51,845 nt of DNA, from assembly GCA_964361015.1 (NCBI GenBank), contig CAYHZE010000001.1:1-51845 (forward strand). Direction: 5' to 3'. The stretch comes from an uncultured Candidatus Saccharibacteria bacterium (GTDB lineage: Bacteria > Patescibacteriota > Minisyncoccia > Sungbacterales > HO2-52-23). Positions 25,844-51,365 of this stretch are shown here, piece by piece. The notes under the pieces were generated by a model. That model saw nothing but the letters and a program-made list of their open reading frames with translations, was not told the DNA's origin and did not search any database. Positions within the stretch are counted from its first letter, which is position 1, and the number at the start of each line of letters is the position of its first letter. Position numbers and translations under genes: made by a program.

Positions 25844-26281
25844 ATGGATACCAATGACCGCGGATCGGCATTTTTATTAAAAAAAGAAGATGTTGACGTA
25901 ATCCGCGCCGCAACGCCAATTGGAGGTAAGAATCTTCTTGAACCGCTTAAATCAATGGCAATCAAGCATAGCTTGCCATTCAAAATTCTTGAAGATCATC
26001 AGATAGTTAATGATGCCGAAGTACATATACATCAAGGCGATCTTTGGTATTGCCTTGAAGGCGAGGTGAAATTTATATATGGCGGCGCGTTGGTGGAGCC
26101 GCGAGTAAAAGTGCGTAAAGACGGGACAGAGGACGCAAGCGAGCAATTTGGTAAAAAAATTTCCGGAGGCACAGAAACAGTATTGAAGCCGGGAGATTGG
26201 TTATGGATCCCCGCAGGTGAACCCCACCAACATTCATGCGCGGGTACGGCACGGTTGATGATTATAAAGGTTCCCGTATGA
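25844..26281 (+). CDS. Cupin-domain protein
   Basis: HIHQGDLWYCLEGEV ... GDWLWIPAGEPHQ two-motif cupin signature. Confidence 0.6.
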   Translation: MDTNDRGSAFLLKKEDVDVIRAATPIGGKNLLEPLKSMAIKHSLPFKILEDHQIVNDAEVHIHQGDLWYCLEGEVKFIYGGALVEPRVKVRKDGTEDASEQFGKKISGGTETVLKPGDWLWIPAGEPHQHSCAGTARLMIIKVPV

Positions 26282-26300
26282 TCCTATGTTATTCATTATT

Positions 26301-26460
26301 AGATCTGACTTTGTAAATATTTTCTACTGCAATTTCCAGATTTCGGCTGCGCCTTTGCAAAAATTATTCAACATATACTCCGTATATGCTTCATAATTTT
26401 TGCTTCGGCTCGCCAGAAATCTGAAAATTTCGCTACGAAAATATTTACAAAGTCAGGTCT
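26301..26460 (-). repeat. Family B palindromic element, copy B4
   Basis: Arms agatctgactttgtaaatattttc / gaaaatatttacaaagtcaggtct; conserved core; TA flanks. Confidence 0.92.
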
Positions 26461-37549: not shown

Positions 37550-38521
37550 ATGCCAAAAATCATTGTAGAAGTCTGTCAAAATCATAACGGCGACCGTTCT
37601 GTCTTAAAAGAAATGATTCATGCCGCGAAAGAAAACGGGGCGGATATTATCAAAGGGCAAATTATTTTTTCCGAAGATCTCACGCCACGCGAACGGTTTG
37701 ACGAGGGGCATGAGGAAACAAACGGCGTGCGCAAGACCATCAAGCGTCCGTATAGAGCGGAGCGCGAACGGCTCGCGAGTTTGGATTTGATGGAAGACGA
37801 TTATCGTTTTTTTGTTGATGAGGTGAATCGTGTCGGTGCGATTCCCATGATGACAGTATTTTCGCGCAATCGCGTACCATTGGCGGCAGGACTTCCATGG
37901 CAGGGCAAGACATTTGTAAAAGTCGCAAGTTATGATTGCGCGAGCGTGCCGCTTGTGTCTGACTTGGCACATCATTTTGACACATTGATTGTTTCTACCG
38001 GCGCTACATTTGACGAGGAGATTAAAAAAACTGCCGCTATGCTGAAAGAAAAAAATAAAAAGTTTGCGCTCCTGCATTGTGTCACGAGTTATCCCAACAC
38101 ACTTAGCATGGCAAACTTGAATCGCATGAATTGGTTGCGTCAGTTTACGCAAGAAGTGGGGTGGTCAGATCACACGCTCGTTGTTCGTGACGGCATTAAG
38201 GCGGCAAAAGTTGCCCTTATGCTTGGCGCAGATTATATTGAGCGGCACTTTACGATTCTTACTGCCGACAAAACCAAGGACGGACCCATATCAATTACTC
38301 CTGCATTACTTCGCGAGCTTGCTGATTTTGCAAAATTGCCGAAAGAAGAACAGAAAGTGATCGTGGCAAAAGAAATTCCGGAATGGGAAATCATGCTCGG
38401 TTCTTCACAGCGCGAGATGACGCATACGGAAATGCTTAACCGCGATTATTATCGCGGACGGTTTGCAAGTTTGGTGAACAATAATGCATGGGTGTATAAT
38501 TGGGAAGAAAAACAAATATAG
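37550..38521 (+). CDS. neuB: NeuB-family nonulosonic acid (sialic/pseudaminic/legionaminic) synthase
   Basis: IIVEVCQNHNGDRSVLKEMIHAAKENGADIIKGQ ... LLHCVTSYPN ... VGWSDHT ... ADYIERHFT. Confidence 0.8.
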   Translation: MPKIIVEVCQNHNGDRSVLKEMIHAAKENGADIIKGQIIFSEDLTPRERFDEGHEETNGVRKTIKRPYRAERERLASLDLMEDDYRFFVDEVNRVGAIPMMTVFSRNRVPLAAGLPWQGKTFVKVASYDCASVPLVSDLAHHFDTLIVSTGATFDEEIKKTAAMLKEKNKKFALLHCVTSYPNTLSMANLNRMNWLRQFTQEVGWSDHTLVVRDGIKAAKVALMLGADYIERHFTILTADKTKDGPISITPALLRELADFAKLPKEEQKVIVAKEIPEWEIMLGSSQREMTHTEMLNRDYYRGRFASLVNNNAWVYNWEEKQI

Positions 38522-38547: not shown

Positions 38548-38697
38548 GACTTACGCATTTTGGTTCCTCCCCTATTCTAGGGGAGGTTAGGAGGGGTATA
38601 GGTGAGGGATAGAACCTACGCTATATTGTTTTTTTCCTCACCCATACCTCCCCTAACCCCTCCTATACTAGGAGGGGAAAAGGAGATGCGTAAGTCC
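38548..38697 (+). repeat. Family A palindromic element, copy A5 (best preserved)
   Basis: Perfect termini gacttacgcat / atgcgtaagtc enclosing hairpin1, the long stem and hairpin2; 150 bp. Confidence 0.92.
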
Positions 38698-38742
38698 TCA
38701 AAAGGTCTTAAAGATTTTTTTGTATCACTTATCATATATATT

Positions 38743-39204
38743 ATGGATAAAAACGAGATACATAATCCTCATGTGAATGTCAGATTTTTTAAAGCCGAAG
38801 ATGTCGGTCCGCGCATTTGGGGCCGCGAGATTTTGGTGGCGCATGTTCCGGGTCTCTACACGGGAAAATTATTGTTAAGAAAAGCCGGTGATGTCAATTA
38901 TAGAAAAAGAAGCATGCAGTACCATCGCATCAAAAATGAATGTTCCTACCTTTATTCAGGCGAACTTTTGTTTTACTATGATTCCGGTGACGGGAAGGTC
39001 TCGGAGAAAAAATTGGTAGCTGGTGATTGCGTCCATATTCCGCCGGGCGCGGTGCACGGCGAAGAGGCGATAACTGATTGCGTGATTTTTGAGACCTCCA
39101 ATCCGGTGTTTAACGATCGGATGCGCGTGAACGAAACATATGGCTTGCCAAGTCCCGTAAACAGTCTCCCTTCGACAACGCTTGACGAGATAGAGATTAG
39201 ATAG
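38743..39204 (+). CDS. Cupin-domain protein
   Basis: GDCVHIPPGAVHGEEA. The ORF-track start at 38602 lies inside repeat A5; in-frame ATG 38743 is preferred. Confidence 0.6.
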   Translation: MDKNEIHNPHVNVRFFKAEDVGPRIWGREILVAHVPGLYTGKLLLRKAGDVNYRKRSMQYHRIKNECSYLYSGELLFYYDSGDGKVSEKKLVAGDCVHIPPGAVHGEEAITDCVIFETSNPVFNDRMRVNETYGLPSPVNSLPSTTLDEIEIR

Positions 39205-39216: not shown

Positions 39217-40647
39217 ATGAAAACGATCGTTATTCCCATAAGCACCAGTTTTACGATACGCAATGTGTTATATACGGACACATTGCGGATTTTATTAGCG
39301 GAACCGGATATACGAATCGTTTTTCTTGCCCCTCGCGAAAAAATTGATCACTATCGGAATCAATTTAAGCATGCGCATATCATATTTGAGGTAATGCCTG
39401 AACTCAAAAAGCTTCGTCAGGAGAGATTTTTTAGAGTTCTTGAAAGTTCAAGTATTCACAGTCGAACAGTATCCATGATTCATTGGTTTGATTTAAAAAG
39501 AAAAGGATCACGCATGAATATCATGAAGCGATTCCCTCTTTTTTTATTACGGAGATGCGCGTGGTGGGTCGGTCAATTTAAGGGGTGGCGTACGGCCATA
39601 AGGATGATATTTTATTCCATACCAAGTCGGATATTTCGTGAGATATTTGATACATATCATCCTGATCTCGTGTTCTGTCCAGCAATGGTTTACGGCGAGC
39701 CTGTTCTTTCCCGCGAAGCAAAAAAATACGGCATTACCACGGTAGGCATGATTTTGAGTTGGGATAATTTTTACAGTAAGACATTTTTAAGAGCTCCTCC
39801 GGATTGCTTGCTTGTTCATACCAATAGTATTAGAGATCAGGCAATAACATTTGCCGACTATCCAAGAGATCGCATTATAGTGATAGGCATCCCGCAGTAT
39901 GACAGTCATTTCCAAAGAACGCGCCTCAAATCCCGTAATGATTTTATTGGCAAAGAATTAGGCGGCAATCCGTCAAAAAAACTTTTGCTTTATGCAATGT
40001 CGGGGAAGAACGGATTATCTATTGAATTTGACATCCTTGATATTATTTATCAGGCAATACGGAATAAAGAGATTAAGGAAGACATTGATGTATTGGTCCG
40101 TCCTTATCCCCGTTATGACCTTCCCCAAAAAAAATTAGATATATTGAAGAAAGAATACGGCTTTTTGGCAAAGCAATCAATGATACATGTGGGAACAGGA
40201 GCTGATAATTGGGAATTCAATGAAGACTCTCTTGCGCTTCTTGAGAATAGTCTTATGCATGCTGATGTTGTGATAACCATGTTCTCCACATTTTTTATTG
40301 AAGCGGCTGTATACGATAAGCCGCTTATTGCGGTGGCGTTTGACGGGTACAAAACATATGATTATTATAATTCGGCCAGGCGTTTTTTTGATTGGGATCA
40401 CCTTGCGGAAATCAAGCCGCTCGGAGGCATACAAATCACAAGAAATAAAGAAGAATTGGTGCAGGCCATTAATACCTATATGGCCCATCCTCTTTTGCTT
40501 AAAGACGGCAGGCAACGTATTGTTCGGCAACAATGCGAATATATGGATGGGCGCGCGGGAGAAAGAGTTGCAAAGGCATTGCTTGATTCAATTTCTCGGT
40601 CTACCGACGAGAGGCAATCATTATGGAAAAGAACACGAAGAAAATAA
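39217..40647 (+). CDS. Uncharacterised GT-B-like transferase, TagF/KpsS-like (paralog 2 of 3)
   Basis: TTVGMILSWDNFYSKTF...IVIGIPQYDSHF; C-terminal ADVVITMFSTFFIEAAVYDKPLIAVAFDGY resembles the TagF donor domain. Confidence 0.45.
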   Translation: MKTIVIPISTSFTIRNVLYTDTLRILLAEPDIRIVFLAPREKIDHYRNQFKHAHIIFEVMPELKKLRQERFFRVLESSSIHSRTVSMIHWFDLKRKGSRMNIMKRFPLFLLRRCAWWVGQFKGWRTAIRMIFYSIPSRIFREIFDTYHPDLVFCPAMVYGEPVLSREAKKYGITTVGMILSWDNFYSKTFLRAPPDCLLVHTNSIRDQAITFADYPRDRIIVIGIPQYDSHFQRTRLKSRNDFIGKELGGNPSKKLLLYAMSGKNGLSIEFDILDIIYQAIRNKEIKEDIDVLVRPYPRYDLPQKKLDILKKEYGFLAKQSMIHVGTGADNWEFNEDSLALLENSLMHADVVITMFSTFFIEAAVYDKPLIAVAFDGYKTYDYYNSARRFFDWDHLAEIKPLGGIQITRNKEELVQAINTYMAHPLLLKDGRQRIVRQQCEYMDGRAGERVAKALLDSISRSTDERQSLWKRTRRK

Positions 40648-42002
40648 TAACAATTTTTCTCACCATTTTTGAGGGAATAGAATCAAAAAATATTCTCCGT
40701 ACTTCGATTTTGCCTACCCTCTTGTCATTGCCAAACAGCCGCCTTGTACTTCTTGTAAAAAATCAAGAAAGGTCTGATTATCTTATGCGTGAGTTCAATG
40801 ATCCTCGTCTCGCTTATGAGTGCGTGGATTTGTTGCAAGCCCGCGGACTTGATAAGTTTCTTGCTCGTTTGAAATTCATATTACTGCGCACGGAAACAAC
40901 TGATTTTCGCCGCAGAATGATGCGTCAGTTGAAACAGCAAGGGAAGGTGGCGTATTTTGCGGGAGTGGTTCTCAATTGGTTCATTGCGAGATCTCTCATA
41001 CGCCGCGTAGTTCGGTTTATAGATTTTACCTGTATAAGAAACTTCGCGTATGATTCTCTGTTTGATGCGTATCATCCCGATCTTGTTGTCATGGCAAATC
41101 TTTTTGATGAGCAGGAAATCCATCTTCTCCGCGGAGCAAAAAAACGAGGCATATCAACAGTCGGATTTATCAACTCATGGGATCGTTTAACGGCGCGTTG
41201 CATAATCCGTCTCCTTCCGGATACGTTCATTGTGTTTAATGATTTTTTAAAAAATGATCTTGTAAAATTTCATGATGCAGATCCGTCTCGCATTTTTGTT
41301 TCCGGCATTCCGCAATATGACGGCTATATCACAGATCCCCCATCCCGCAGAGAGGCATTCTTTTCATCAATTGGAGAACATGCGCGCAATCATCTCATTA
41401 TCTATTCGCCTCTGGGCGGCGGATTTCAAGATCTTGATTGGAGCATGATTGATTTGCTTTATGAATTGCGGCAAAAGGGAAGATTTGGAGATCATGCGGT
41501 ATTGCGCGTGCGCTTCCCTCCAAATGATTATTTTGATTATGAAGAAATCAATAAGCGTCCATTTCTCCGTTATGATTATCCCGGCGTCCGTTTTTCAAAG
41601 AAAAGAGGCGTTGATTGGGATATGTCGCCGCGTGAGCTCTCGCACTTGACAGATACCTTGCGCCATATGTCGCTTCTCATTTGTTACGGATCAAGTATGA
41701 GCGTGGATGCCGCACTGCTTGATAAGCCCGTCATCAATATAAATTTTGAACCGGTTACCTGTAAATCAACCGACCTTTCCGCGGTAAAGTTTTATGGAAT
41801 GACGCATTATAAAAAAGCGCTTGAGACGGGCGGAATTCGGCTTGTGAACAGTGAGAGAGAACTTATCAAGTGGGTTACCGCTTATTTGGAAAATCCCTCG
41901 CTTGATCACGACGGAAGGGCGCGGCTTGCGCGTGAACAATGCCAATTTTTAGATGGAAGATCCGGGGAAAGGATAGGGAAGTTTATTTTGAAACAATTAT
42001 AG
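40623..42002 (+). CDS. Uncharacterised GT-B-like transferase, TagF/KpsS-like (paralog 3 of 3)
   Basis: STVGFINSWDRLTARCI...FVSGIPQYDGYI; the C-terminus ...REQCQFLDGRSGERIGKF parallels ...RQQCEYMDGRAGERVAKA of paralog 2; 25 nt overlap with the upstream paralog. Confidence 0.45.
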   Translation: MEKNTKKIITIFLTIFEGIESKNILRTSILPTLLSLPNSRLVLLVKNQERSDYLMREFNDPRLAYECVDLLQARGLDKFLARLKFILLRTETTDFRRRMMRQLKQQGKVAYFAGVVLNWFIARSLIRRVVRFIDFTCIRNFAYDSLFDAYHPDLVVMANLFDEQEIHLLRGAKKRGISTVGFINSWDRLTARCIIRLLPDTFIVFNDFLKNDLVKFHDADPSRIFVSGIPQYDGYITDPPSRREAFFSSIGEHARNHLIIYSPLGGGFQDLDWSMIDLLYELRQKGRFGDHAVLRVRFPPNDYFDYEEINKRPFLRYDYPGVRFSKKRGVDWDMSPRELSHLTDTLRHMSLLICYGSSMSVDAALLDKPVININFEPVTCKSTDLSAVKFYGMTHYKKALETGGIRLVNSERELIKWVTAYLENPSLDHDGRARLAREQCQFLDGRSGERIGKFILKQL

Positions 42003-42003: not shown

Positions 42004-42930
42004 ATGGCATTCTCAATTCAAGACAATTTTATAATCGCGAATTACCACTATGTGGAAAATTCTCGCCCCGATTTTTCCGGTATTCATCCTTGTTCAGTAC
42101 AGGAGTTTGAACGCCAAATTTCATTTTTTGCGGAGCATTTTAGTTTTGTTTCCGTACCTGAACTTTTTGCCGCCGCGCAACATAATGAGAATAAGAAATG
42201 CTGTGCCATTACGTTCGATGATGGTTTGAAAGATCAGTACGATAATGCGGCGCCTGTTCTTAAAAAATATAACGCAAGCGCGACATTTTTTATCATTACC
42301 GCAACGCTTCAAGGGCGCGTTCCTTTGGCGCATAAGATTCATACGGTTACGTCCCGTATCCCAATGAATGATCTACGGGAGAAATTCAATTTATTTTTGG
42401 CATCGGATTTCCCTGATTTCACAGAATATCTTATTCCAAAAGATCGTCGTCTGACGGATAAGCGCCGTTATGACGATATTATTTCGGCCAACGTAAAGGA
42501 GGCATTTACCATTATACCCCGTAAGGTATCAGATGCTTTTCTTGCCAAATGTTTAGGTGAACTTAAGTTTGATGAGTGGGAATTAGCAAAAAAACTTTTT
42601 ATGAGCTTACAAGAAATACAAACGTTGGATAAGGACGGATTTTTCATTGAGAGCCATACGCATAATCATTATGACTTAAGCGGCGCGAATTTGAATGTCC
42701 AGCGTGATGATTTTGATGCGGCAGAAAAAGTATTTAAAAAAATGGTAGGCAGATCTCCGAAGATAATGGCATATCCGTATGGACGCCCGCCGGAGACAGA
42801 TGAGGTTCTGCATGAATATGGTTTTAGGCATGCGGTGACTGTTGAGTCGCGAGTTGTCAGCGACGCCGATAATCCTTTGCGCATTCCTCGTTTTGATACG
42901 AACGATATAAAAATATTTTTGGATACCTAA
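42004..42930 (+). CDS. Polysaccharide deacetylase (NodB homology domain)
   Basis: CAITFDDGLKDQYDNAAPVLKKYNASATFFI; ESHTHNH. Confidence 0.8.
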   Translation: MAFSIQDNFIIANYHYVENSRPDFSGIHPCSVQEFERQISFFAEHFSFVSVPELFAAAQHNENKKCCAITFDDGLKDQYDNAAPVLKKYNASATFFIITATLQGRVPLAHKIHTVTSRIPMNDLREKFNLFLASDFPDFTEYLIPKDRRLTDKRRYDDIISANVKEAFTIIPRKVSDAFLAKCLGELKFDEWELAKKLFMSLQEIQTLDKDGFFIESHTHNHYDLSGANLNVQRDDFDAAEKVFKKMVGRSPKIMAYPYGRPPETDEVLHEYGFRHAVTVESRVVSDADNPLRIPRFDTNDIKIFLDT

Positions 42931-42934: not shown

Positions 42935-43345
42935 ATGAATATATCTCATGATGTTAGCGGAGGGGCGAAGTATAATGAAAAAAATCAGACTGCGTTGAGT
43001 ATAAAAGGCGTAGGAATTGATATAGAAGAAGTTGCCCGTTTTCGGGCATATAGTCCAGCCGCAAAAAAAAGTTTTTATAGCGCCATATTCACCCAAAAAG
43101 AAATGCAGTACTGTATGTCAAAAAAGGATCCATATCCGCACTTCACGGCTCGCTTTTGCGCGAAGGAGGCTGTCACAAAAGCTCTTCATGGGACACATGT
43201 TGATTTGAAACATATAGAAATCACCAATGATGCGCAAGGCCGCCCCAAAGTGAGTTTCAAAGAAAAAAATAATAATTATATGATTGAAATTTCCTTGTCC
43301 CATACGAAGCAACACGCAATAGCAATCGCATTATGGCTACGTTAG
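42935..43345 (+). CDS. acpS: Holo-ACP synthase (AcpS-type 4'-phosphopantetheinyl transferase)
   Basis: GVGIDIEEVARF ... FTQKEMQYC ... FCAKEAVTKAL ... ISLSHTKQHAIAIAL; the true start may lie downstream of 42935. Confidence 0.8.
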   Translation: MNISHDVSGGAKYNEKNQTALSIKGVGIDIEEVARFRAYSPAAKKSFYSAIFTQKEMQYCMSKKDPYPHFTARFCAKEAVTKALHGTHVDLKHIEITNDAQGRPKVSFKEKNNNYMIEISLSHTKQHAIAIALWLR

Positions 43346-43373
43346 ACAGTTTCTCAAAAATTTGATATAACCT

Positions 43374-44138
43374 ATGTATATGAAAAAATATCATACAGCA
43401 TTTAGCGGACTTCATTCGGATATTGAAAAGAATTTACAGCAGGGTTTGCTTAGTCTTTTAAAAGAATCTCCAATCCCTGATACGGAATTCATTGCCAATC
43501 TGCCTCTTTTTTTGCGGCGCCAGGATATAGCGCGGATTTTATTTATGGATTACTTATATAGGGAAATGATCGGAGTCCATGGGGTGATCGCCGAATTCGG
43601 TATTAGGTGGGGGAGAAATCTTCCCCTTTTGGAATCACTGCGCGGTATTTACGAGCCTTACAATTATAATCGTAAAATTTTAGGATTTGATACATTTCAA
43701 GGATTTCCCAATACTTCGGAAAAAGACGGAAAAGCAAAAATTATCGCTACCGGGACGCTTGCGGTGAGTGACGGGTATGATGCTTATTTAGGGCGCATTA
43801 TGGATCATCATGAAAGCGGGAATCCGGTTTCTCATATTAAAAAATATGAGCTGGTAAAAGGAGACGCAAGTATAAGCATAAAAAAATATCTTAAGGATCA
43901 CCCGGAGACCATCTTTGCGTTCGCATATTTTGATTTTGATTTATATGAACCGACAAAAAACGTGCTGAAAGCAATTAAGGGACATCTGACCAAAGGGAGC
44001 GTGATTGCATTTGACGAAGTAAATCATAAAGATTTTCCCGGCGAGACGCTCGCATTAAAAGAAGTCTTGGGCCTTGATACTTATCATTTGTGCCATAATC
44101 CTTATGGATCGGCGCAATCATATTTGGTTATTGAATAG
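43374..44138 (+). CDS. TylF/MycF-like (macrocin-O-methyltransferase family) methyltransferase
   Basis: VIAEFGIRWGRNL...GFDTFQGFP...FAYFDFDLYEPTK...GSVIAFDE; the stop TAG overlaps the first bases of repeat B5. Confidence 0.6.
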   Translation: MYMKKYHTAFSGLHSDIEKNLQQGLLSLLKESPIPDTEFIANLPLFLRRQDIARILFMDYLYREMIGVHGVIAEFGIRWGRNLPLLESLRGIYEPYNYNRKILGFDTFQGFPNTSEKDGKAKIIATGTLAVSDGYDAYLGRIMDHHESGNPVSHIKKYELVKGDASISIKKYLKDHPETIFAFAYFDFDLYEPTKNVLKAIKGHLTKGSVIAFDEVNHKDFPGETLALKEVLGLDTYHLCHNPYGSAQSYLVIE

Positions 44139-44295
44139 ACCTACTGCGTAATTATTTTTGTAGCGAAATTTTCAGATTTCGAGCGAGGCGCAGGAAAAAT
44201 TTTGAAGCATATACAGCGTATATGTTGAAAAATTTTTACAAAGCCGTAGCCGAAATCTGGAAATTGCAGCACAAAAATAATTACGCAGTAGGTCT
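44137..44295 (+). repeat. Family B palindromic element, copy B5
   Basis: Perfect 25-bp arms agacctactgcgtaattatttttgt / acaaaaataattacgcagtaggtct; TA flanks. Confidence 0.92.
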
Positions 44296-44306
44296 ATTAA
44301 CATCAA

Positions 44307-45056
44307 ATGAGAAAAGGGGATTTAGTGCAGGATGTATCTTTTTTTGGTTGTACATACGCGCGGATTTTATCCAGATGCGTAACCCGTGAGGAGGCGGAAG
44401 GTTTGAAGAAAAAATATCATTATATTCATCTTTATTCCTTTGAAAAGGAAAACCTGCCTCTTGATTTTGACGTTCTAATACAAAGAACGCTTATTTTTGA
44501 TTTGTCGAAGGATTTAGAAGAGATTTTTAAAAATTTTAATGATACATGTAAAAAACACATACGACGCGGAGAAAGAGATGCCGATGTAACATTGGTTGCG
44601 CTAGATGATAATTTTACTGCGTCGTACGCGCTGTACGCAAAAGTCAAACGTCAGGAAGGGGCGCGTCCGGATATCAAAAAAGAATTCAAAAATTGCATTT
44701 TTTTTAACGCTTATTTCAAGGGTGAAATGATCGTGACCATGTCTTTTTATGATAACGGTGAAATCATAAGAGCAAAGCATATCGCATCGTTAAGAAAAGA
44801 AAAAGGGGAATATGCAAAAATTATCGCTCATGCTTCACGGCGCCTTAATTGGGAAGTTATGAAGTGGGGGAAGGCGCAGGGAAGAAAAGTGTTTGATATC
44901 GGCGGTATTACGGATGATCCGTCAAAAAAAGGCATCAGAGAATTCAAACAATCTTTCGGCGGCGCTGACGCGGATGTTTATATATATCGTTATACCACTT
45001 TTACTTTTGTTTTCTTAAAAAAGATATTACATCTGTTTGGAAAAAATATAAATTGA
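44307..45056 (+). CDS. FemAB-like / GNAT-fold acyl- or aminoacyl-transferase
   Basis: KKHIRRGERD...; ...IIAHASRRLNWEVMKWGKAQGRKVFDIGGI...GIREFKQSFGG resembles the C-terminal half of the FemAB family. Confidence 0.45.
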   Translation: MRKGDLVQDVSFFGCTYARILSRCVTREEAEGLKKKYHYIHLYSFEKENLPLDFDVLIQRTLIFDLSKDLEEIFKNFNDTCKKHIRRGERDADVTLVALDDNFTASYALYAKVKRQEGARPDIKKEFKNCIFFNAYFKGEMIVTMSFYDNGEIIRAKHIASLRKEKGEYAKIIAHASRRLNWEVMKWGKAQGRKVFDIGGITDDPSKKGIREFKQSFGGADADVYIYRYTTFTFVFLKKILHLFGKNIN

Positions 45057-45060
45057 TGGA

Positions 45061-45210
45061 GAACTTTCGTGTTTGATACCTCTCCTATTCTAGGGGAGGT
45101 TGGGAGGGGTATGAGTGAGGGATATCAACTTTTTCTTTAGGTTCTATCCCTGACCCATACCACCCCTAACCCCTCCTAAGATAGGAGGGGAAAGGGAAAT
45201 ACGTAAGTCC
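45061..45210 (+). repeat. Family A palindromic element, copy A6
   Basis: Degenerate left terminus gaactttcgtg; right terminus atacgtaagtcc; conserved internal stems. Confidence 0.88.
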
Positions 45211-45219
45211 TATTGATTC

Positions 45220-46239
45220 ATGCATCTCACTGACATATATCCTTACAATTCATTGTCTATTCGTTCAGGCATGACTGCTCAAAGCGAAGCGGCGCTTGAC
45301 GCGCTTGTGACAGAGTATTTTGGCGTTGAGTCGGCCGTGGTAAGTTCGGCGCGAGCGGGCCTCTATCTTATACTTAAAACTCTCGGTTTTTCCCGGACCG
45401 ATCATATTCTTGTTCCCGATTTTTTGTGCCGGTCAGTGCTCTATATTCTTAATCTCCAGGGATTTGCCGTACAGGAAGCAAACGCACGCACCAAGGCGGT
45501 ATTTGTATTTCATCAATGGGGATATCCTCAACGGATGGATATTATTATGAGTGAGGCAAAAAAACGCGGATGGTATGTGATTGAAGATTGCGCGCACGCG
45601 TTTGGCAGTACATATCGCGGAGAAATGGTCGGTAGTTTCGGCGATGCGTCAATTGTCAGTTTTCCAAAAATTTTTCCCACCTATGTGGGCGGTGCGGTAC
45701 TTTCAAAACATAAAGATCTCATTGCGCGGGTGCATGATACGCGCGAAGAGCCGCGATCACTTGGTCATCACTTGTTTGATCGCATATCCGTATATGCGGC
45801 GAGACAAAATTATTTATTGCGCAAGCCTCCTTTTCTGGCAACTGCCATTTATATTAAAAGCATTCATTTCCCGCGCATTGCACGGACCGCGCTTCGATGG
45901 TTTCCTCGGACGCTTGAGGACATTACATCCTCCCTTGCGCGAAGAAAATATATTTTTCAGACACTCAAAAAAAAGGCAGGTCCGGCATATCATCCCTTTG
46001 AGCTTGATGACGACAGTGATGTTATTCCGCTTTGCGTACCCATCTTTTTTCCCGAAGAAAAACTTCGCGCGGCGCAAGATATGCTTAAAGAAAAAAACAT
46101 TATTGCCGACATCCTGCATTTTGACGTAAATCGCAACATTCTCAATCCGCATTATAAGAAATGTCTCGCATTTCCTTGTCATCAATATGTGACCGATGAA
46201 GAGTTGAATTATATGTGCGATGTGATACGTCGTGTATAA
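45220..46239 (+). CDS. DegT/DnrJ/EryC1-family PLP-dependent sugar aminotransferase (divergent)
   Basis: VSSARAGLYLILKTLG...VIEDCAHAFGSTYRGEMVGSFGDASIVSFPKIFP (Lys in the expected position). Confidence 0.65.
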   Translation: MHLTDIYPYNSLSIRSGMTAQSEAALDALVTEYFGVESAVVSSARAGLYLILKTLGFSRTDHILVPDFLCRSVLYILNLQGFAVQEANARTKAVFVFHQWGYPQRMDIIMSEAKKRGWYVIEDCAHAFGSTYRGEMVGSFGDASIVSFPKIFPTYVGGAVLSKHKDLIARVHDTREEPRSLGHHLFDRISVYAARQNYLLRKPPFLATAIYIKSIHFPRIARTALRWFPRTLEDITSSLARRKYIFQTLKKKAGPAYHPFELDDDSDVIPLCVPIFFPEEKLRAAQDMLKEKNIIADILHFDVNRNILNPHYKKCLAFPCHQYVTDEELNYMCDVIRRV

Positions 46240-46281
46240 ATTCGTGAATTGGTTTCCTCTTTTCTTCAATCGGCAGTTTTA

Positions 46282-46415
46282 AGAGACCATTACAAAACTC
46301 TTTTTCATCTCCCGTTTGTCATTCCAAGCACTTGCGGGAATCTAGGTTCTCTCCTGAATTTAACGGGTCTGGATTCCCGCTTACGCGGGAATGACAGAGT
46401 TTTGTAATGGTCTCT
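46282..46415. mobile_element. Family D MITE-like element, copy D-b
   Basis: 20-bp TIR agagaccattacaaaactct / agagttttgtaatggtctct enclosing a gtcattcc...gggaatgac double-hairpin core. Confidence 0.85.
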
Positions 46416-46478
46416 AAGTACATCTCATAAACGAAGCGTCCCCAGTTACCATTCTATTTGAAATATGGTTCTATATAT

Positions 46479-48161
46479 ATGGAGTTTGGTGAAATTCAGA
46501 AGAAGATAAGCGACTTATATCAGGACACCCGCGTATCGGTGGCCGAATATATATCTCTTGCACATGCGCTTGGTGATGGGTCAGCAGGCAATGTTCCTTC
46601 GTATATTCGCACCCTTAAGGCGGCTTTTTTGGGCAGTTTTACGATTCAGGGATTGCCGGAAGTATGCAAAGCGCGGGGAATTTTTCATAATTTGCGGATT
46701 GAAATTTATCTGGCGGCGTATAATCAATTCACGCAAGAAGCAATTAATGCGGAAAGCGAACTTGCGCGATTTAATCCTGATATCGTATATGCGGCGGTGG
46801 ATGCGCCGGAAATAATGGACAGGCATCATTTGGAAATCGTGTGCCGTGGACTGTTGGAATACACAAAAGCAAAAATCATTTTTTTTAATTTTGCCTCGAG
46901 TCCGCAGATCAGTCCGGAACGCGCGCGGGAGTTGAACAGGGCGCTTGTGGATTTGGAAAAAAAAGAAGAAAGGATTATAGTTTTTAATTTTGCAAAATTT
47001 TTGCAACGTATTGGTAAAGATGGCCATTGGTATACGAAATACAAACAATTAGGAGATATGCGGTTGGCGCCAAGCGGATTTGCGCCATTGTCTGAAGAAT
47101 TGATCGGGTATGGAGTTGCGCGCGCGGGCAATACAAAAAAATGTTTGGTGCTTGATCTTGATAATACCTTATGGAAAGGTATTATTGGCGAAGATGGTAT
47201 GAGAGGAATTGTGCCGAATCGCAAATTTCAGCGCCATATTCTTGGATTGCATGAAAAGGGCGTCATTCTCGCAATCAACAGTAAAAACAATATGAGAGAC
47301 GCGCAGGAAGTTTTTGAACACCATCCTGACATGGTACTTAAAGAAAATCATATTGCCGCATGGAGGGTAAATTGGCAAGATAAGGATCGTAATATGGCGG
47401 AGATCGCGCAGGATTTGGATTTGGGAACTGACAGTTTTGTGTTTGTTGATGACAGCGGTTTTGAACAAGAGCGGGTGAAAACGGCGTTTCCCGAAATAGC
47501 GGTTTTGTCGCCGGATGCGCTCGCGGATTTTCGGGGATTTTTTTCGTTTAAGGTGACAAAGGAAGATATGCGCAGAGGGGCAATGTATGTGGAGGAGCGC
47601 AAGAGAAAAGAATTGCGGACTTCCCTGCCGAGTGAAGATGAGTTTCTCTCTACACTCGGATTGTCGCTTATCATACGTCATGCGTTAGAAAGTGATGTTG
47701 CGCGTGTAAGCCAACTTACGCAAAAGACTAATCAATTCAATCTCACCACTCGGCGGTATACGGAGGATGAAATTCGTTCGCGCATACAAGACAATGCGTG
47801 GAATATACGGGTTGCCGAAGCCAAAGATCGTTTCGGCGATTATGGCGCTATTGGGATTGCGATTATAGAGCACGGCCGCGATGCGTGGCGCATTGATAAT
47901 TTTTTATTGAGCTGCAGGATTCTTGGCAGAAAGGTGGAGAAAGTATTTTTGCATGCTCTTTTGGACAGCGCGTGCCAACAAGGCATTGAACGTGTAATCG
48001 GTGAATTTATTCCTTCGGCGAAAAATAAACTATGTGAATCGTTTCTTGAAGATAACAAATTCGTATTTGAATCTTGTGAAGAAAAAAAGTTTATCTATCA
48101 TTGGACTTCCGAAAATAAATCATACACGTACCCTCATTTCATCAAGCTTACTCTTGCATAA
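46479..48161 (+). CDS. FkbH-like HAD-IIIC phosphatase / ACP-loading enzyme
   Basis: CLVLDLDNTLWKGIIGEDG (DxDxT HAD motif), INSKN, VFVDDS, GNAT-like C-terminal tail; the ORF track starts at TTG 46458. Confidence 0.8.
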   Translation: MEFGEIQKKISDLYQDTRVSVAEYISLAHALGDGSAGNVPSYIRTLKAAFLGSFTIQGLPEVCKARGIFHNLRIEIYLAAYNQFTQEAINAESELARFNPDIVYAAVDAPEIMDRHHLEIVCRGLLEYTKAKIIFFNFASSPQISPERARELNRALVDLEKKEERIIVFNFAKFLQRIGKDGHWYTKYKQLGDMRLAPSGFAPLSEELIGYGVARAGNTKKCLVLDLDNTLWKGIIGEDGMRGIVPNRKFQRHILGLHEKGVILAINSKNNMRDAQEVFEHHPDMVLKENHIAAWRVNWQDKDRNMAEIAQDLDLGTDSFVFVDDSGFEQERVKTAFPEIAVLSPDALADFRGFFSFKVTKEDMRRGAMYVEERKRKELRTSLPSEDEFLSTLGLSLIIRHALESDVARVSQLTQKTNQFNLTTRRYTEDEIRSRIQDNAWNIRVAEAKDRFGDYGAIGIAIIEHGRDAWRIDNFLLSCRILGRKVEKVFLHALLDSACQQGIERVIGEFIPSAKNKLCESFLEDNKFVFESCEEKKFIYHWTSENKSYTYPHFIKLTLA

Positions 48162-48163
48162 CT

Positions 48164-48397
48164 ATGAAAACAGTTGAAGAAGTAATTGCTCATGTCCTTC
48201 ACATTGATCCTTCCGGTATCACTGACGCGAGCAGTCCGAACGACATAGAGAACTGGGATTCGTTTAACGGACTTCTTTTGGTTACTGAACTTGAAAAGAC
48301 ATTTAACGTATCTTTTAGTCTTGATGAGATCGTGGTGGTAAAAAATGTCGGCGATATTAAATCAGCTTTGAAAAAACATGGCATCAAAATCCCCTAA
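48164..48397 (+). CDS. Acyl carrier protein
   Basis: 77 aa; NWDSFNGLLLVTELE contains the DS(L/F) phosphopantetheine attachment motif. Confidence 0.8.
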   Translation: MKTVEEVIAHVLHIDPSGITDASSPNDIENWDSFNGLLLVTELEKTFNVSFSLDEIVVVKNVGDIKSALKKHGIKIP

Positions 48398-48821
48398 TCT
48401 TCCGCTTCATTCTTTTTCGTTCAAAGATATTCAGATAGGGGATACCTATTCTTTTGAGCGTTTTATTGATGATGAATTGGTCAAATCTTTTGCAGACATG
48501 AGCGGTGATTACAATCCGCTTCATATGGACGAGATATATGCGGCCCGTACCCAATTTGGCGGGCGCGTAGCTCATGGTATGCTTTCAGCAAGTTTTTTTT
48601 CAGCGCTTGTCGGCATGTTGTGTCCCGGTTCTCACTGTCTTTATCTTTCGCAAGACGTGCGCTTTAAGAAGCCGATCTTTCTTAATACGCGAGTGGTAGT
48701 CAAAGGAACGGTTACTGAAAAATCGGATGCAGTCAACATAATTTTTTTGCGGACCCTCGTATTGGATAAAGACGGTGTTGTTGTGGTTGAAGGCGAGGCA
48801 AAGGTAACCGTAATGACATAG
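48378..48821 (+). CDS. MaoC-like (R)-specific hydratase/dehydratase (hot-dog fold)
   Basis: SGDYNPLHMDEIYAARTQFGGRVAHGML. Confidence 0.8.
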   Translation: MASKSPNLPLHSFSFKDIQIGDTYSFERFIDDELVKSFADMSGDYNPLHMDEIYAARTQFGGRVAHGMLSASFFSALVGMLCPGSHCLYLSQDVRFKKPIFLNTRVVVKGTVTEKSDAVNIIFLRTLVLDKDGVVVVEGEAKVTVMT

Positions 48822-48825
48822 GAAT

Positions 48826-49524
48826 ATGAATAGATTTGACAAAAAAGTTATTTTAATACTCGGAGGCACCGGTGCAATCGGATCTTCTATTGCCGACCAT
48901 CTTGAACAAGAGGGCGGTATTGCCATTCGGCATGGAAGAAGTGGAGCATACGCATGGGATATTGAGAAAGGGGAAGATGCGGGCGTGTTTGTGGAAAAAA
49001 TAATCAAAGATTTTGGAAAAATAGACGGGGTGGTAAATTCACTTTCTTGCCCCATACGGATCGGCAATTTTGAAAAGAAAAGTTGGCAGGATTTTCTAGG
49101 GCATCTCAATGTGCAGTTGAAGGCCGCAGTTGAAATCGAAGGGAGTGTTATTGTTCATATGAAAAAACAGGGAAAGGGAAAGATCGTGCATGTGATAACC
49201 TCATACGCGATTGCCCTACCTCCTCCGGGCATTTCCGAATATATAACGGCAAAGTACGCGATGTGGGGGTTGACCAAGGCATTGGCAAGAGAGCTGGGGC
49301 GTCATCATATTACCGTCAATGCGGTATCGCCCGGGTTTATAAAAAATAAATTCAGTTCCATTGCTCCCGAAAAACTCATTGATATCATCACTGCCGAAAC
49401 TCCGCTTGGGCGCTTGACTACCGAAAAAGATGTGGCGCATGCGGTATTATTTCTTCTATCTGAAGACGCGGATCATATCACAGGAGAAAATATAAACATT
49501 TCCGGGGGGCAGACGATGGAATAA
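48826..49524 (+). CDS. Short-chain dehydrogenase/reductase (FabG-like)
   Basis: VILILGGTGAIGSSIA; YITAKYAMWGLTKALA (YxxxK); NAVSPGFI. Confidence 0.8.
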   Translation: MNRFDKKVILILGGTGAIGSSIADHLEQEGGIAIRHGRSGAYAWDIEKGEDAGVFVEKIIKDFGKIDGVVNSLSCPIRIGNFEKKSWQDFLGHLNVQLKAAVEIEGSVIVHMKKQGKGKIVHVITSYAIALPPPGISEYITAKYAMWGLTKALARELGRHHITVNAVSPGFIKNKFSSIAPEKLIDIITAETPLGRLTTEKDVAHAVLFLLSEDADHITGENINISGGQTME

Positions 49525-49527
49525 TAT

Positions 49528-49658
49528 GAGACTGTAGAAGAATGCCCAGAAGTTGTCATTGCGAGGAGCAGTAGTGACGAAGCAATCTCTCTCTCGGCGT
49601 TATAGATTGCTTCGCTACGCTCGCAATGACACCGTGGGAGATATTCTTCTACAGTCTC
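49528..49658. mobile_element. Family D MITE-like element, copy D-c
   Basis: TIR gagactgtagaagaat / attcttctacagtctc; core gtcattgcgagg...gcaatctctctctcgg...agattgcttcg...ctcgcaatgac; flanked by AATAT on both sides. Confidence 0.88.
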
Positions 49659-49665
49659 AATATGA

Positions 49666-49830
49666 GGACTTACGCATTTAGTTTTAGTTTTAGTTCCTCC
49701 CCTAGAATAGGGGAGGGTAGGAGGGGTATGTGTGTGGGGGATATCAATTTTTTCTTTAGGTTTTGCCCTCACCTTCTATCACCCCTAACCTCGCTCCTAT
49801 TTTATGAAGAGAAAAAGAAGTCAAGCGCAT
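49666..49830 (+). repeat. Family A palindromic element, copy A7 (right half degenerate)
   Basis: ggacttacgcat + hairpin1 + long stem; hairpin2 and the right terminus are eroded; starts 8 bp after D-c. Confidence 0.8.
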
Positions 49831-49843
49831 AAATTCTATATAT

Positions 49844-50308
49844 ATGCCAAGCATAAAAATAAAAATTTTAAAAAGAACCACGCTGAAAATTCTGCATCAA
49901 GTCAATCATCTCCTCTCGCAGTTAAGTTTAACCGCCACTGCTCCCGCTCCGCTCACCCCTAGACAATTCAAGTCCCTTCTCGGCCAACCGCGGGTATTTT
50001 TTTTAACCGCCATGTCTTCCATGGATGCGGAGGCGGTTATGATTGGTTTTCTCGCCATCTATTTAGTAAGAATTCCAAGCGGACTTTTAGCTGTGGTAGA
50101 AGATTTAATTGTTGATGAACCGTACCGCAAGCGGGGGGTGGGACGGCTTTTAATGGAATACGCGATTGACTTGGCGGAGAAAAAAGGCGCGCGCCATATA
50201 AGTCTCCGCACAAATCCTCAACGAATCGCAGCGAATAAGCTTTATGAACAAATGGGGTTTCGTCTCATGACGACAAATTTTTTTCGGATCAATTTGCCGA
50301 GGAAATAA
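49844..50308 (+). CDS. GNAT-family N-acetyltransferase
   Basis: VDEPYRKRGVGRLLMEYAIDLAEKKGARHISL...ANKLYEQMGF (motif A Q/RxxGxG/A). Confidence 0.85.
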   Translation: MPSIKIKILKRTTLKILHQVNHLLSQLSLTATAPAPLTPRQFKSLLGQPRVFFLTAMSSMDAEAVMIGFLAIYLVRIPSGLLAVVEDLIVDEPYRKRGVGRLLMEYAIDLAEKKGARHISLRTNPQRIAANKLYEQMGFRLMTTNFFRINLPRK

Positions 50309-50311
50309 ATT

Positions 50312-50443
50312 AGGACCGTAGAAAAATATCTCCCATGATGTCATTGCGAAGCGTTGCGCAAGTAATCTATAGCCTTAAGATAGAGATTGCTTCGTCGGAA
50401 GCCTTCTCGCAATGACAGTGTTCGGGTATTGTTCTACGGTCTC
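50312..50443. mobile_element. Family D MITE-like element, copy D-d
   Basis: TIR aggaccgtagaaaaata / ggtattgttctacggtctc; core gtcattgcgaag...agattgcttcg...ctcgcaatgac; flanked by AAATT on both sides. Confidence 0.85.
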
Positions 50444-50464
50444 AAATTATAATTTTTTTCATTC

Positions 50465-51184
50465 ATGTCATATTTAACAGTAGAAGAAATGCGAAATAAT
50501 CGGGAGTTCATGGCAGGTGATAAGAATCTTGACGAGGGCGGGACGCGATTTTTGGGAAGCACGGAAGCTGATCTTGCGCTGAAACTTTTTCCCAAAGAGG
50601 GAAGGATTTTAGATTGCGGTCCGGCATCAGGCATGTTTATTAAAGTTCTGCAGGATCATGGATTTAAACATATTCACGCGCTTGATGTCATTGATACGAT
50701 GATATACGGAGATCGCGCGCAATTTCCATTTCAAGAAATTGATTTTAATAAGGATATATTTCCGTATACGGATCAGTATTTTGACGGCGTGGCGGCCTGG
50801 GGCATTATGGAGCATATGGAAAATCCCTATCACTTTATGCGTGAAATACATCGGGTGCTGAAAAACGATCATTATTTTCTCATGGCAGTTCCCAGTATGT
50901 TTCACTGGTGGAGCCGGCTTATTTTTTTGAAAGCCGGACTTTTCCCGCGATGGAGCCATCGCAATAATCATATTGCATTATTTCCACGCGGCGTGTTTGA
51001 AAATACTTTTTTACGTTACTTTACGCTTGAAAAAACACTCTACACAAAGCCAAGTTTCCGGCTGAACGTATTTGACTGGACAAGCAAATATGTTCCGTCA
51101 AACGAGTGGTTCGGCAACTATGTGGTGTACATGCTGAAGCGCAAGGAGTTTGTGCCGTTTGTTGCCAATAAAAAGAAGAGATAA
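50465..51184 (+). CDS. Class I SAM-dependent methyltransferase
   Basis: ILDCGPASGMFIKVL motif I; FDGVAAWGIMEHMENP. Confidence 0.7.
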   Translation: MSYLTVEEMRNNREFMAGDKNLDEGGTRFLGSTEADLALKLFPKEGRILDCGPASGMFIKVLQDHGFKHIHALDVIDTMIYGDRAQFPFQEIDFNKDIFPYTDQYFDGVAAWGIMEHMENPYHFMREIHRVLKNDHYFLMAVPSMFHWWSRLIFLKAGLFPRWSHRNNHIALFPRGVFENTFLRYFTLEKTLYTKPSFRLNVFDWTSKYVPSNEWFGNYVVYMLKRKEFVPFVANKKKR

Positions 51185-51190
51185 TTTTTA

Positions 51191-51352
51191 AGAGCCTGTT
51201 CATAATCTTTTTTCCAGAGCCATTTTGTGATATTTTGAGCGAAAAACCTGAAGACCGACGAAACGTAGCGGTGCCTACGTTGAGGAGGTCTGAAGGTTTT
51301 GCAGCCAAAATAGCACAAAATGGAGTCGGGAAAAAGATTATGAACAGGCTCT
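51191..51352 (+). repeat. Family C palindromic element, copy C2
   Basis: Same orientation and length as 1..162; perfect outer arms agagcctgttcataatctttttt / aaaaagattatgaacaggctct. Confidence 0.92.
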
Positions 51353-51365
51353 AAGAATAAAAAAG

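Follow-up and report, generated by a model that had tools for sequence, protein, structure and literature searches.

A candidate FkbH- and carrier-protein-based cassette for N-acylation of nonulosonic acids in a Patescibacteria glycan locus

Contig CAYHZE010000001.1 of assembly GCA_964361015.1, from an uncultured Candidatus Saccharibacteria bacterium, is a 51,845-base contig of a metagenome-assembled genome of the Patescibacteria (candidate phyla radiation, CPR). Nearly all of it is a glycan locus, and almost all of its genes lie on the + strand. Within this whole stretch, to which we refer as the window, an FkbH-family loader, a dedicated acyl carrier protein (ACP), an AcpS-type 4'-phosphopantetheinyl transferase (PPTase), a MaoC-type dehydratase and a short-chain dehydrogenase/reductase (SDR) are encoded next to enzymes of sugar modification and transfer. 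On balance, we favor the interpretation that these genes form a modular unit that would build a lactyl-type acyl group from 1,3-bisphosphoglycerate on the ACP, attach it to the nitrogen of a nonulosonate or a nonulosonate precursor, and then install the modified sugar. The window exemplifies a modular cassette, widespread and so far unstudied, that we find in CPR bacteria, DPANN archaea, Thaumarchaeota and Acidobacteria. The genes of the cassette and its immediate surroundings are as follows.

39217-40647, + strand: TagB/Glyphos_transf-type transferase 1, candidate nonulosonate transferase (PF04464, E 9e-15)
40623-42002, + strand: TagB/Glyphos_transf-type transferase 2 (PF04464, E 2.1e-5)
42004-42930, + strand: CE4 polysaccharide-deacetylase-family enzyme, proposed de-N-acetylase (PF01522, E 1e-23)
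42935-43345, + strand: AcpS-type PPTase (PF01648, E 3.6e-20; TIGR00556, 64.9 bits, above cut-off)
43374-44138, + strand: CalS11/TylF-superfamily S-adenosylmethionine (SAM)-dependent O-methyltransferase (CalS11 match in PDB)
44307-45056, + strand: FemAB-like protein with a tandem-GNAT fold (weak sequence evidence, strong fold evidence)
45220-46239, + strand: short DegT-fold pyridoxal phosphate (PLP) enzyme, PLP_IMCC1989-like, 339 aa, candidate sugar aminotransferase (PF01041, E 1.8e-23)
46479-48161, + strand: FkbH-family loader, 560 aa, with N-terminal, HAD-IIIC phosphatase and C-terminal acyl-transfer domains (TIGR01686)
48164-48397, + strand: dedicated ACP, 77 aa (PF00550, E 2.6e-5, above cut-off)
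48378-48821, + strand: MaoC-type (R)-hydratase/dehydratase (PF01575, E 6.7e-21)
48826-49524, + strand: FabG/FabI-like SDR (PF13561, E 7.5e-38)
49844-50308, + strand: small GNAT N-acyltransferase, 154 aa (PF00583, E 1.7e-15)
50465-51184, + strand: class I SAM-dependent methyltransferase of the Methyltransf_23 type, MT23 (PF13489, E 2.4e-15)

All nine genes named in an initial annotation of this DNA are present on the + strand, at or near the positions assigned to them there. That annotation missed further members of the same unit, namely the two TagB/Glyphos_transf genes, the CE4 deacetylase gene and the second methyltransferase gene. The junctions are tight: the CE4 deacetylase gene stops 4 nucleotides ahead of the PPTase start, FkbH and the ACP are separated by a gap of 2 nucleotides, the ACP and MaoC genes overlap by 20 nucleotides, and 4 nucleotides lie between the MaoC and SDR genes. 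The description of the gene set as a self-contained factory needs revision. A separate module, made up of the DegT-like and FemAB-like genes, is inserted between the PPTase and FkbH genes, so that the unit is a composite one.

The assignment of the loader is solid, and at the sequence level the protein is a real member of the FkbH family. It scores 302 bits with TIGR01686 (cut-off 146.65; E 4.6e-90), a match that covers residues 226-538, and 61.9 bits with the HAD-IIIC model TIGR01681 (cut-off 35.75). Its start at position 46479 agrees with that of database protein P0001, to which it is 100% identical, and its named relatives are proteins of Candidatus Sungbacteria, Parcubacteria and Patescibacteria that carry the label 'HAD-IIIC family phosphatase'. 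In an alignment of the window protein with 15 homologs (40-62% identity), the HAD motifs Asp226-Leu-Asp228-Asn-Thr230, Ser268, Lys302 and Asp324-Asp325 are invariant, as is the C-terminal motif Ser478-Cys479-Arg480. The catalytic aspartates and the presumed catalytic cysteine of true FkbH loaders are thus kept, and the earlier call of an FkbH-like loader is borne out by the TIGR01686 score, by the intact motifs and by the presence of a dedicated ACP and a PPTase. The sole solved structure of an FkbH relative is a structural-genomics fragment from B. fragilis (BF1531, PDB 3slr) that comprises the N-terminal and HAD parts (E 1.6e-36). FkbH-type enzymes convert 1,3-bisphosphoglycerate to glyceryl-ACP (PMC3679948, PMC4552970).

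The partner proteins look functional, judging from their conserved residues. The ACP has its attachment residue at Ser33, and the Trp-Asp-Ser motif is kept across 78 cassette ACPs. MaoC carries the hydratase-2 motif GDxNPxH with Asp44 and His49, and the GGTGAIG motif, Ser126, Tyr139 and Lys143 of the SDR are intact; both sets of residues are kept in the cassette homologs. A private PPTase and a free-standing ACP had been proposed before, and both assignments stand, the AcpS-type PPTase scoring above the TIGR00556 cut-off and the ACP with its Ser33 adjoining FkbH. The dehydratase and the reductase follow FkbH and the ACP directly, as is required by the logic of lactyl-ACP loading modules made up of FkbH, dehydratase (DH) and ketoreductase (KR) domains. 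Family searches found neither an FkbK-type 3HCDH nor an FkbI-type acyl-CoA dehydrogenase among the window genes, and they found no ketosynthase (KS), acyltransferase (AT), polyketide synthase (PKS) or nonribosomal peptide synthetase (NRPS) in the 51.8-kb contig. Therefore, the three-carbon acyl group is the sole product that the gene set can make.

To place the cassette in a wider context, we used the FkbH alignment to scan genomes from GTDB, one for each species, which gave 569 confirmed relatives, and kept the best 80 loci with flanks of up to 10 kb on each side (individual loci are cited by L numbers). The window proteins were searched against the six-frame open reading frames (ORFs) of these loci, and all ORFs were also clustered without prior labels. 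Many of the 80 loci end at contig ends, and the counts are lower bounds. An ACP lies near FkbH in 75 of the 80 loci, a PPTase immediately upstream of FkbH in 23, and a MaoC gene directly after the ACP in 27. The SDR is present in 19 loci, together with MaoC in 17. As for nonulosonate genes, NeuB occurs in 18 loci, a NeuC-like gene in 12 and NeuA in 11. The gene order PPTase–FkbH–ACP–MaoC–SDR is common to Patescibacteria/Saccharibacteria, Woesearchaeota, Nanoarchaeota, Methanosarcinales and Thaumarchaeota, and in Acidobacteria a MaoC–SDR fusion is found next to FkbH–ACP and NeuB (L052, L054, L073 and L082; ORFs of 409-505 aa).

A co-occurrence analysis had been suggested for the association with nonulosonate genes. 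NeuB, NeuA or NeuC lies within 10 kb in 16 of the 27 loci with MaoC, as against 7 of the 53 that lack it (Fisher p = 4.2e-5), and the association recurs in many lineages. This recurrent synteny argues against a pathway unrelated to sugars. The operon in Patescibacteria typically reads Glyphos_transf–deacetylase–PPTase–FkbH–ACP, then MaoC–SDR, a methyltransferase or nothing, then a GNAT-type protein, NeuC and NeuA, with NeuB nearby. In the closest relative on a long contig, L001, whose FkbH is 62% identical to that of the window, the window genes including those for the FemAB-like protein, the PLP enzyme, the GNAT and MT23 are present but MaoC and SDR are not, and the locus runs on into NeuC–NeuA–NeuB. 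The lack of MaoC and SDR in L001 fits a role of these two enzymes as optional editors of the glyceryl unit. We also observed a gene for a D-isomer-specific 2-hydroxyacid dehydrogenase beside NeuA in L004, L005, L027, L052, L084 and L085.

Among NCBIfam models, the CE4 deacetylase comes closest to those of the N-deacetylases IcaB, PgaB and PgdA. It occurs in 32 of the 80 loci and is the second commonest FkbH neighbor family after the ACP. The Glyphos_transf family adjoins deacetylase and FkbH genes in nine of the 80, and relatives of Glyphos_transf 2 (419-503 bits) lie directly 5' of deacetylase–PPTase–FkbH in L001, L005, L006 and L007. The only NCBIfam match of Glyphos_transf 1 is NF046086, the BFO_1060-family glycosyltransferase model (E 4e-10, below cut-off). 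BFO_1060 and Tanf_01245 are TagB-like proteins of T. forsythia that are proven transferases for derivatives of legionaminic acid (Leg) and pseudaminic acid (Pse) (PMC5420450). Two context genes for nonulosonate synthesis and activation are located 4-8 kb upstream of the cassette.

34167-34928, + strand: CMP-nonulosonate synthetase, NeuA/PseF-like (PF02348, E 1.9e-25)
37550-38521, + strand: NeuB-family nonulosonate synthase, 323 aa (PF03102, E 1.5e-42)

The nearest NCBIfam model of NeuA is PseF (145 bits, below cut-off). NeuB lacks a SAF domain and scores below the cut-offs of the NeuB and PseI equivalog models, and no NeuC or Epimerase_2 gene was recognizable in the window. The segment 35403-37436, between NeuA and NeuB, encodes a 430-aa protein that has no family match other than a very weak one to GT28-C; L007 and L086 have orthologs of it in the corresponding place. 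There is also a 232-aa ORF on the opposite strand, and a cupin gene follows NeuB (38602-39204). This set, with its SAF-less NeuB, may make a non-standard nonulosonate. Elsewhere in the contig, family searches revealed nucleotidyltransferases, 4,6-dehydratases, epimerases, GT2 transferases, a sugar C-methyltransferase, many methyltransferases, GFO/IDH/MocA oxidoreductases and a nucleotide-sugar dehydrogenase in addition to NeuA and NeuB.

From the gene content, motifs, fold and synteny we infer the substrates, the order of the steps and the final product of the following route. The PPTase would convert the ACP to its holo form. It is very probable that 1,3-bisphosphoglycerate would then be loaded onto Cys479 of FkbH, the HAD domain would remove the 3-phosphate, and the glyceryl unit would pass to the ACP thiol. 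With somewhat better than even confidence we suggest that MaoC would next eliminate the 3-hydroxyl as water to give 2-hydroxyacryloyl-ACP, the enol of pyruvoyl-ACP, and that the SDR would reduce either tautomer to lactyl-ACP; whether it acted as a keto-reductase or as an enoyl-reductase, lactyl-ACP would be formed. Dehydration is placed at C3 because the C3 hydroxyl is the sole beta-hydroxyl of the three-carbon glyceryl thioester, and it is the chemistry of such a three-carbon 2,3-dihydroxyacyl thioester that leads us to lactyl-ACP. Perhaps, although we doubt it, one of the two methyltransferases would O-methylate the remaining hydroxyl to yield a 2-methoxypropanoyl group. The CE4 deacetylase would strip the N-acetyl group from the nonulosonate or its precursor and so free the acceptor amine, and a GNAT, here tentatively the small one at 49844, would move the acyl group from the ACP to this amine. 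TagB-like transferases would finally install the modified sugar. Separately from this route, the module of the FemAB-like protein and the PLP enzyme would probably use aminoacyl-tRNA as the donor to aminoacylate the amine of a sugar.

Given that the cassette would need an enzyme to release its acyl group, the proteins encoded just downstream of it deserve attention. In 13 loci the cassette is followed on the same strand by a protein of about 380 aa that has no Pfam match above the default threshold. The profile of this family weakly matches tandem GNATs of about 390 aa (2ozg, 4my0) and N-myristoyltransferases, and single members match PF00583. Its members (12 aligned; loci L003-L008, L010, L023, L042, L052, L054 and L073, for example L004 11867-13012) share a conserved terminal motif, T-K-G-D-x-D-Q-D-R-P-N. 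In 18 Acidobacteria loci among L034-L079 (for example L041 11929-13107), this position is taken by a second family of about 385 aa (cluster 22), whose representative gave no Pfam match. Both families appear to be uncharacterized. The window has neither of them, and the small 154-aa GNAT is found there instead. In an hhalign comparison this GNAT aligns with the N-terminal half of the post-cassette tandem GNAT (E 6.5e-5, probability 64%). It carries an R-x-x-G-x-G loop and, of the named proteins, is most closely related to streptothricin and polyamine N-acetyltransferases. In L001 the gene for its ortholog overlaps the stop codon of the ACP, and in L023 the ortholog comes after FkbH–ACP–methyltransferase. 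We regard the small GNAT (49844-50308) as the best candidate for the acyl-ACP transferase, an assignment that we put forward with less than even confidence. A role of this protein as PseH was also considered and was rejected, there being no match to a PseH model.

The FemAB-like protein had likewise been proposed to be an N-acyltransferase that draws on the ACP, and here our results speak otherwise. Its sequence scores are low (TIGR03019, E 1.5e-6 but 27.5 bits where the cut-off is 260; PF13480 also below cut-off), and some of its homologs carry precomputed PF02388 matches. The 60 matches that make up this small family are all of about 249 aa and come from Patescibacteria only. An AlphaFold (AF2) model built from 32 homologs has a pLDDT of 95.5. 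In a Foldseek search of the PDB with this model, the top match was Sba18/Sbb17 (E 6e-14; TM-score 0.65, normalized by query length), followed by FemX, MprF and aminoacyl-phosphatidylglycerol synthases, and FemA. The best PDB matches are all aminoacyl-tRNA-dependent transferases. Sba18/Sbb17, which has been crystallized with streptothrisamine, aminoacylates this amino-sugar intermediate in an aminoacyl-tRNA-dependent manner. FemAB-like homologs always adjoin Glyphos_transf, deacetylase and NeuC/NeuA genes. At L084 and L085 they occur without any carrier protein, which is compatible with an aminoacyl-tRNA donor. Because of the aminoacyl-tRNA-transferase fold and the occurrence without an ACP, the FemAB-like protein is probably not the ACP-acyl transferase; we rejected it as first choice for these reasons and since it shows no profile similarity to the post-cassette tandem GNAT. 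In our view, it belongs to a separate module that is independent of the ACP and probably N-aminoacylates a sugar amine. The earlier proposal that a modified three-carbon acyl group is made on the ACP and passed to the nitrogen of an amino sugar or nonulosonic acid is thus supported in part, by the FkbH motifs, the dedicated ACP and PPTase, the synteny and the absence of a KS, but not in the role that it gave to the FemAB-like protein.

The gene for the DegT-fold enzyme accompanies the FemAB-like gene in the window as well as in L001 and L083. One of its lysines aligns with the PLP lysine of perosamine synthase (PDB 3bn1), and its L001 ortholog matches PF27889. We considered whether this enzyme might convert pyruvoyl-ACP to alanyl-ACP and rejected the idea, as the enzyme is kept in L001, which has no MaoC, and is absent from most cassettes that have one. 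In L083, a Patescibacteria locus, the FemAB-like homolog stands beside an AMP-binding (adenylating) enzyme and a 77-aa carrier protein that replace FkbH (13035-14965). The partners there are otherwise unchanged, namely the PPTase, Glyphos_transf, FemAB-like protein, PLP enzyme, MT23, deacetylase, GNAT and NeuC. Therefore, the loader of the carrier protein appears to be exchangeable.

The two methyltransferases belong to different families. The protein at 43374-44138 matches CalS11 (PDB 4gf5/3tos), a TDP-rhamnose 3'-O-methyltransferase, over residues 18-250 (E 2.6e-68, 234 bits), and its Pfam matches to TylF and Methyltransf_24 are weak. It is hence a methyltransferase, as annotated before, and is described more exactly as a close CalS11 homolog than as TylF-like. 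This similarity would suggest a CalS11-type nucleotide-sugar O-methyltransferase with a sugar hydroxyl as its target. CalS11-like relatives (322 bits) also lie within the FkbH cassettes of L028 and L029, and members of another TylF-like family are found in L023 and L026, 3' of the gene for the ACP or MaoC. In L029 the order is PPTase–FkbH–CalS11-like methyltransferase–ACP–MT23, and the cassette contains neither MaoC nor SDR as a discrete gene; a di-O-methylglyceroyl group would call for such a set of genes. The MT23 family (50465-51184 in the window) occurs in 12 of the 80 loci, and its ortholog in L001 (403 bits) follows ACP–GNAT.

Several points weigh against the proposed route to an N-lactyl nonulosonate. 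The small GNAT resembles the usual N-acetyltransferases that depend on acyl-CoA, and in L084 it accompanies the FemAB-like gene where there is no ACP at all; it is because of these two observations that its assignment as the acyl-ACP transferase is only tentative. The methyltransferase at 43374-44138 is, by its sequence, a nucleotide-sugar O-methyltransferase. MaoC is not homologous to the PKS dehydratase domains that catalyze the precedent reaction, and the likeness between them is one of analogy. The assignment of Cys479 as the acyl-carrying catalytic residue is presumptive and goes back to work on OzmB. The window has no recognizable NeuC, and its NeuB and NeuA score under the equivalog cut-offs. 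Lastly, the acceptor atom could be an oxygen instead of a nitrogen.

An oxygen acceptor is what one would expect if the glyceryl or lactyl group were ester-linked, in a DltA/DltC-like manner, to a teichoic-acid-like glycerol-phosphate polymer or to some other hydroxyl, with the Glyphos_transf proteins serving as CDP-glycerol glycerophosphotransferases. Two PF04464 genes do lie directly upstream, a TagD-type CTP_transf_like cytidylyltransferase is encoded at 3920-4426, and the AMP-binding enzyme and 77-aa carrier of L083, which also lie by Glyphos_transf genes, resemble DltA and DltC. We nonetheless consider this improbable, since the conserved synteny is with NeuB, NeuC and NeuA, TagB-like proteins are nonulosonate transferases in T. 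forsythia (PMC5420450) and Glyphos_transf 1 matches only that NCBIfam family, and the partners in the operon are a de-N-acetylase and GNATs, with no O-acyltransferase of the MBOAT/DltB type. Less improbable, though still unlikely, is that the unit is kept as a glyceroyl or O-methylated glyceroyl group, as in C. jejuni and T. forsythia, and that MaoC and the SDR act elsewhere, for example on another acyl thioester or in oxidation of the glyceryl unit. The two methyltransferases would match the two O-methyl groups of di-O-methylglyceroyl-Pse (PMC3068675), the L029 cassette contains two methyltransferases but lacks MaoC and SDR as discrete genes, and L026 has MaoC and a TylF-like methyltransferase with no adjacent SDR. 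Set against this, MaoC–SDR comes right after the ACP with overlapping or nearly abutting junctions in 17 loci and is fused in Acidobacteria; this position and the fusion argue for sequential action on the ACP-bound unit. Removal of the C3 beta-hydroxyl, moreover, leads to pyruvoyl and then to lactyl, and FkbH together with a dehydratase and a reductase gives lactate-ACP in PKS loading modules (PMC7901079, citing Zhang 2011).

The substituent might also consist of two parts, the FemAB-like protein aminoacylating the sugar amine and the GNAT capping the product with the acyl group of the ACP to give an N-(lactyl-aminoacyl) sugar. The FemAB-like fold matches that of Sba18/Sbb17, which acts on the amino-sugar antibiotic intermediate streptothrisamine, the nearest named relatives of the small GNAT (streptothricin and polyamine N-acetyltransferases) acylate a side-chain amine, and overlaps join the GNAT gene to the FemAB-like gene in L084 and to the ACP gene in L001. 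Yet a FemAB-like gene is present in none of the 80 genome loci, and such genes also occur without any ACP, so that we give this arrangement a small chance, slightly below that of the teichoic-acid-like ester. Least credible of all, and in our estimate very improbable, is a small-molecule secondary-metabolite pathway (polyketide, tetronate or lipid) with glycan neighbors by chance. It is true that the characterized FkbH enzymes all come from polyketide or tetronate pathways (PMC3679948, PMC4552970). However, no KS, AT, PKS, NRPS or FkbI/FkbK-type dehydrogenase is encoded in the 51.8 kb, and in many lineages, Patescibacteria and DPANN archaea among them, the cassette lies within operons of NeuB, NeuC and NeuA. 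With KS, PKS, NRPS and FkbI/FkbK absent from the window, a polyketide or tetronate pathway was rejected. N-acylation of a nonulosonate by a lactyl-type group remains the preferred interpretation.

The initial annotation also remarked on repeats in the wider intergenic gaps. We found palindromic, direct and inverted repeats there, located as follows.

44134-44298, no strand: palindromic repeat with 81-nt arms, between the methyltransferase and FemAB-like genes
45072-45171 and 49689-49790, no strand: direct repeat, intergenic copies
49521-49661 (left arms) and 50309-50450 (right arms), no strand: inverted repeats flanking the GNAT gene
51186-51357, no strand: palindrome

Long hairpin or palindromic repeats of one or more families lie between genes across the contig, with further repeats at 1-162, 16004-16187, 18643-18763, 25647-25811 and 26296-26442. 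Two single genes are bracketed by inverted repeats, one for a cupin (25844-26281; 147-nt arms) and the GNAT gene at 49844-50308. Known RNAs were rejected as an explanation of the intergenic repeats, as no Rfam match reached the gathering score, and promoter and terminator scans gave background levels. Other features of the locus include an AbiEi/AbiEii-type (type IV) toxin-antitoxin pair (8144-9536) amid the glycan genes. A B12-binding radical SAM enzyme (5322-6836) and a sugar C-methyltransferase of the Methyltransf_13/14 type (18786-20021) suggest further unusual sugar chemistry, for example C-methylated sugars. The nucleotide-sugar dehydrogenase at 32350-34068 scores 360 bits with TIGR03026, has UDP-ManNAc dehydrogenases as its nearest models, and bears an extra N-terminal extension of about 135 aa with a CBS domain.

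The genes for unusual N-acyl groups of bacterial sialic-acid-like sugars are mostly unknown, and the cassette could explain rare N-lactyl and N-glyceroyl sugars. N-glyceroyl is found on the nonulosonate Pse5Am7Gra of T. forsythia, for which the genetic basis of the glyceroyl group was called 'a major challenge' in 2017 (PMC5378307). C. jejuni has 5-N-(2,3-di-O-methylglyceroyl)-Pse, for which it has been suggested that the 5-N-acetyl group is taken off ahead of re-acylation (PMC3068675), and an annotated FkbH-domain gene, cj1302, lies in its flagellin glycosylation locus (PMC7099621). N-lactyl groups, described as rare, are known on Pse, Rha4N and Fuc3N (PMC9912281), and uncharacterized ACP-based gene sets occur in the flagellar glycosylation islands of Aeromonas (PMC7874193). 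The formation of lactate-ACP by an FkbH loading module with a dehydratase and a reductase has been described (PMC7901079, citing Zhang 2011). In the literature that we could search, in which most subscription journals are not covered, we found neither an assignment of the glyceroyl, di-O-methylglyceroyl or lactyl groups to FkbH–ACP cassettes nor a description of the variant with MaoC–SDR, although such reports may exist elsewhere. The searchable literature likewise yielded no biosynthetic route to N-lactyl sugar amides and, on FkbH together with nonulosonic acids, capsules or O-antigens, only the mention of cj1302 in C. jejuni. The suggestion of an uncommon or undescribed route may accordingly hold for the MaoC–SDR variant and its assignment, which we did not find in the literature that we could search, but not for cj1302 or the FkbH–DH–KR lactyl logic, which were already known.

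It is conceivable, with nearly an even chance in our judgment, that a mobile cassette of PPTase–FkbH–ACP with or without MaoC–SDR and O-methyltransferases, plus a GNAT-type protein, is a general source of glycerate-derived N-acyl groups (glyceroyl, (O-methyl)glyceroyl and lactyl) on nonulosonic acids and amino sugars, drawing on glycolytic 1,3-bisphosphoglycerate. If this is true, the accessory genes would predict the acyl group, with none giving glyceroyl, methyltransferases giving methylglyceroyl, and MaoC with SDR giving lactyl, and this part of surface-glycan chemistry would become readable from genomes. It would also mean that a few enzymes might serve in the chemo-enzymatic synthesis of modified nonulosonates, and that Patescibacteria and DPANN archaea have the genes to make surface sugars of elaborate chemistry.

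Among known systems, the FkbH, OzmB and Tmn16 loaders of the methoxymalonyl-ACP and tetronate pathways share with the window protein the succession of N-terminal, HAD-IIIC and conserved-Cys C-terminal domains, the free-standing ACP and the presumed substrate, 1,3-bisphosphoglycerate. Unlike those pathways, the window has no FkbK/FkbI oxidation to hydroxymalonyl-ACP and no consuming PKS; its downstream enzymes are MaoC, SDR and GNATs, and its setting is a glycan locus. Closer in logic are the FkbH–DH–KR–ACP loading modules of trans-acyltransferase (trans-AT) PKSs, as in FR901464, in which glyceryl-ACP is dehydrated and then reduced to lactyl-ACP. Bryostatin is said to have another such lactyl-starter module. 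In contrast to these modules, the enzymes of the window are discrete, the dehydratase is a single-hotdog MaoC protein, and the acceptor enzyme would be an N-acyltransferase and not a ketosynthase.

With the flagellin locus of C. jejuni, the window shares, going by published descriptions, an FkbH-domain gene in a nonulosonate locus, a glycerate-derived N-acyl group and a deacetylation that is proposed to come first. The deacylase proposed there is aminopeptidase-like (Cj1295), whereas that of the window is of the CE4 type. ACP and methyltransferase genes lie next to cj1302, and Campylobacter has a FabH-like gene and is not known to have a MaoC/SDR pair. The T. forsythia system that makes Pse5Am7Gra has in common with the window a TagB-like nonulosonate transferase (Tanf_01245/BFO_1060), whose family model (BFO_1060) is weakly matched by Glyphos_transf 1. 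Like the window, the group II flagellar glycosylation islands of Aeromonas and the tetronate genes rfbK-O of V. cholerae O1 have a carrier protein of their own, which lies among tailoring enzymes within a sugar locus and supplies an unusual N-acyl group. Both the Aeromonas and the V. cholerae systems load the carrier by means of an AMP-ligase or a LuxE-type enzyme and in this respect resemble L083, not the FkbH-based cassette of the window.

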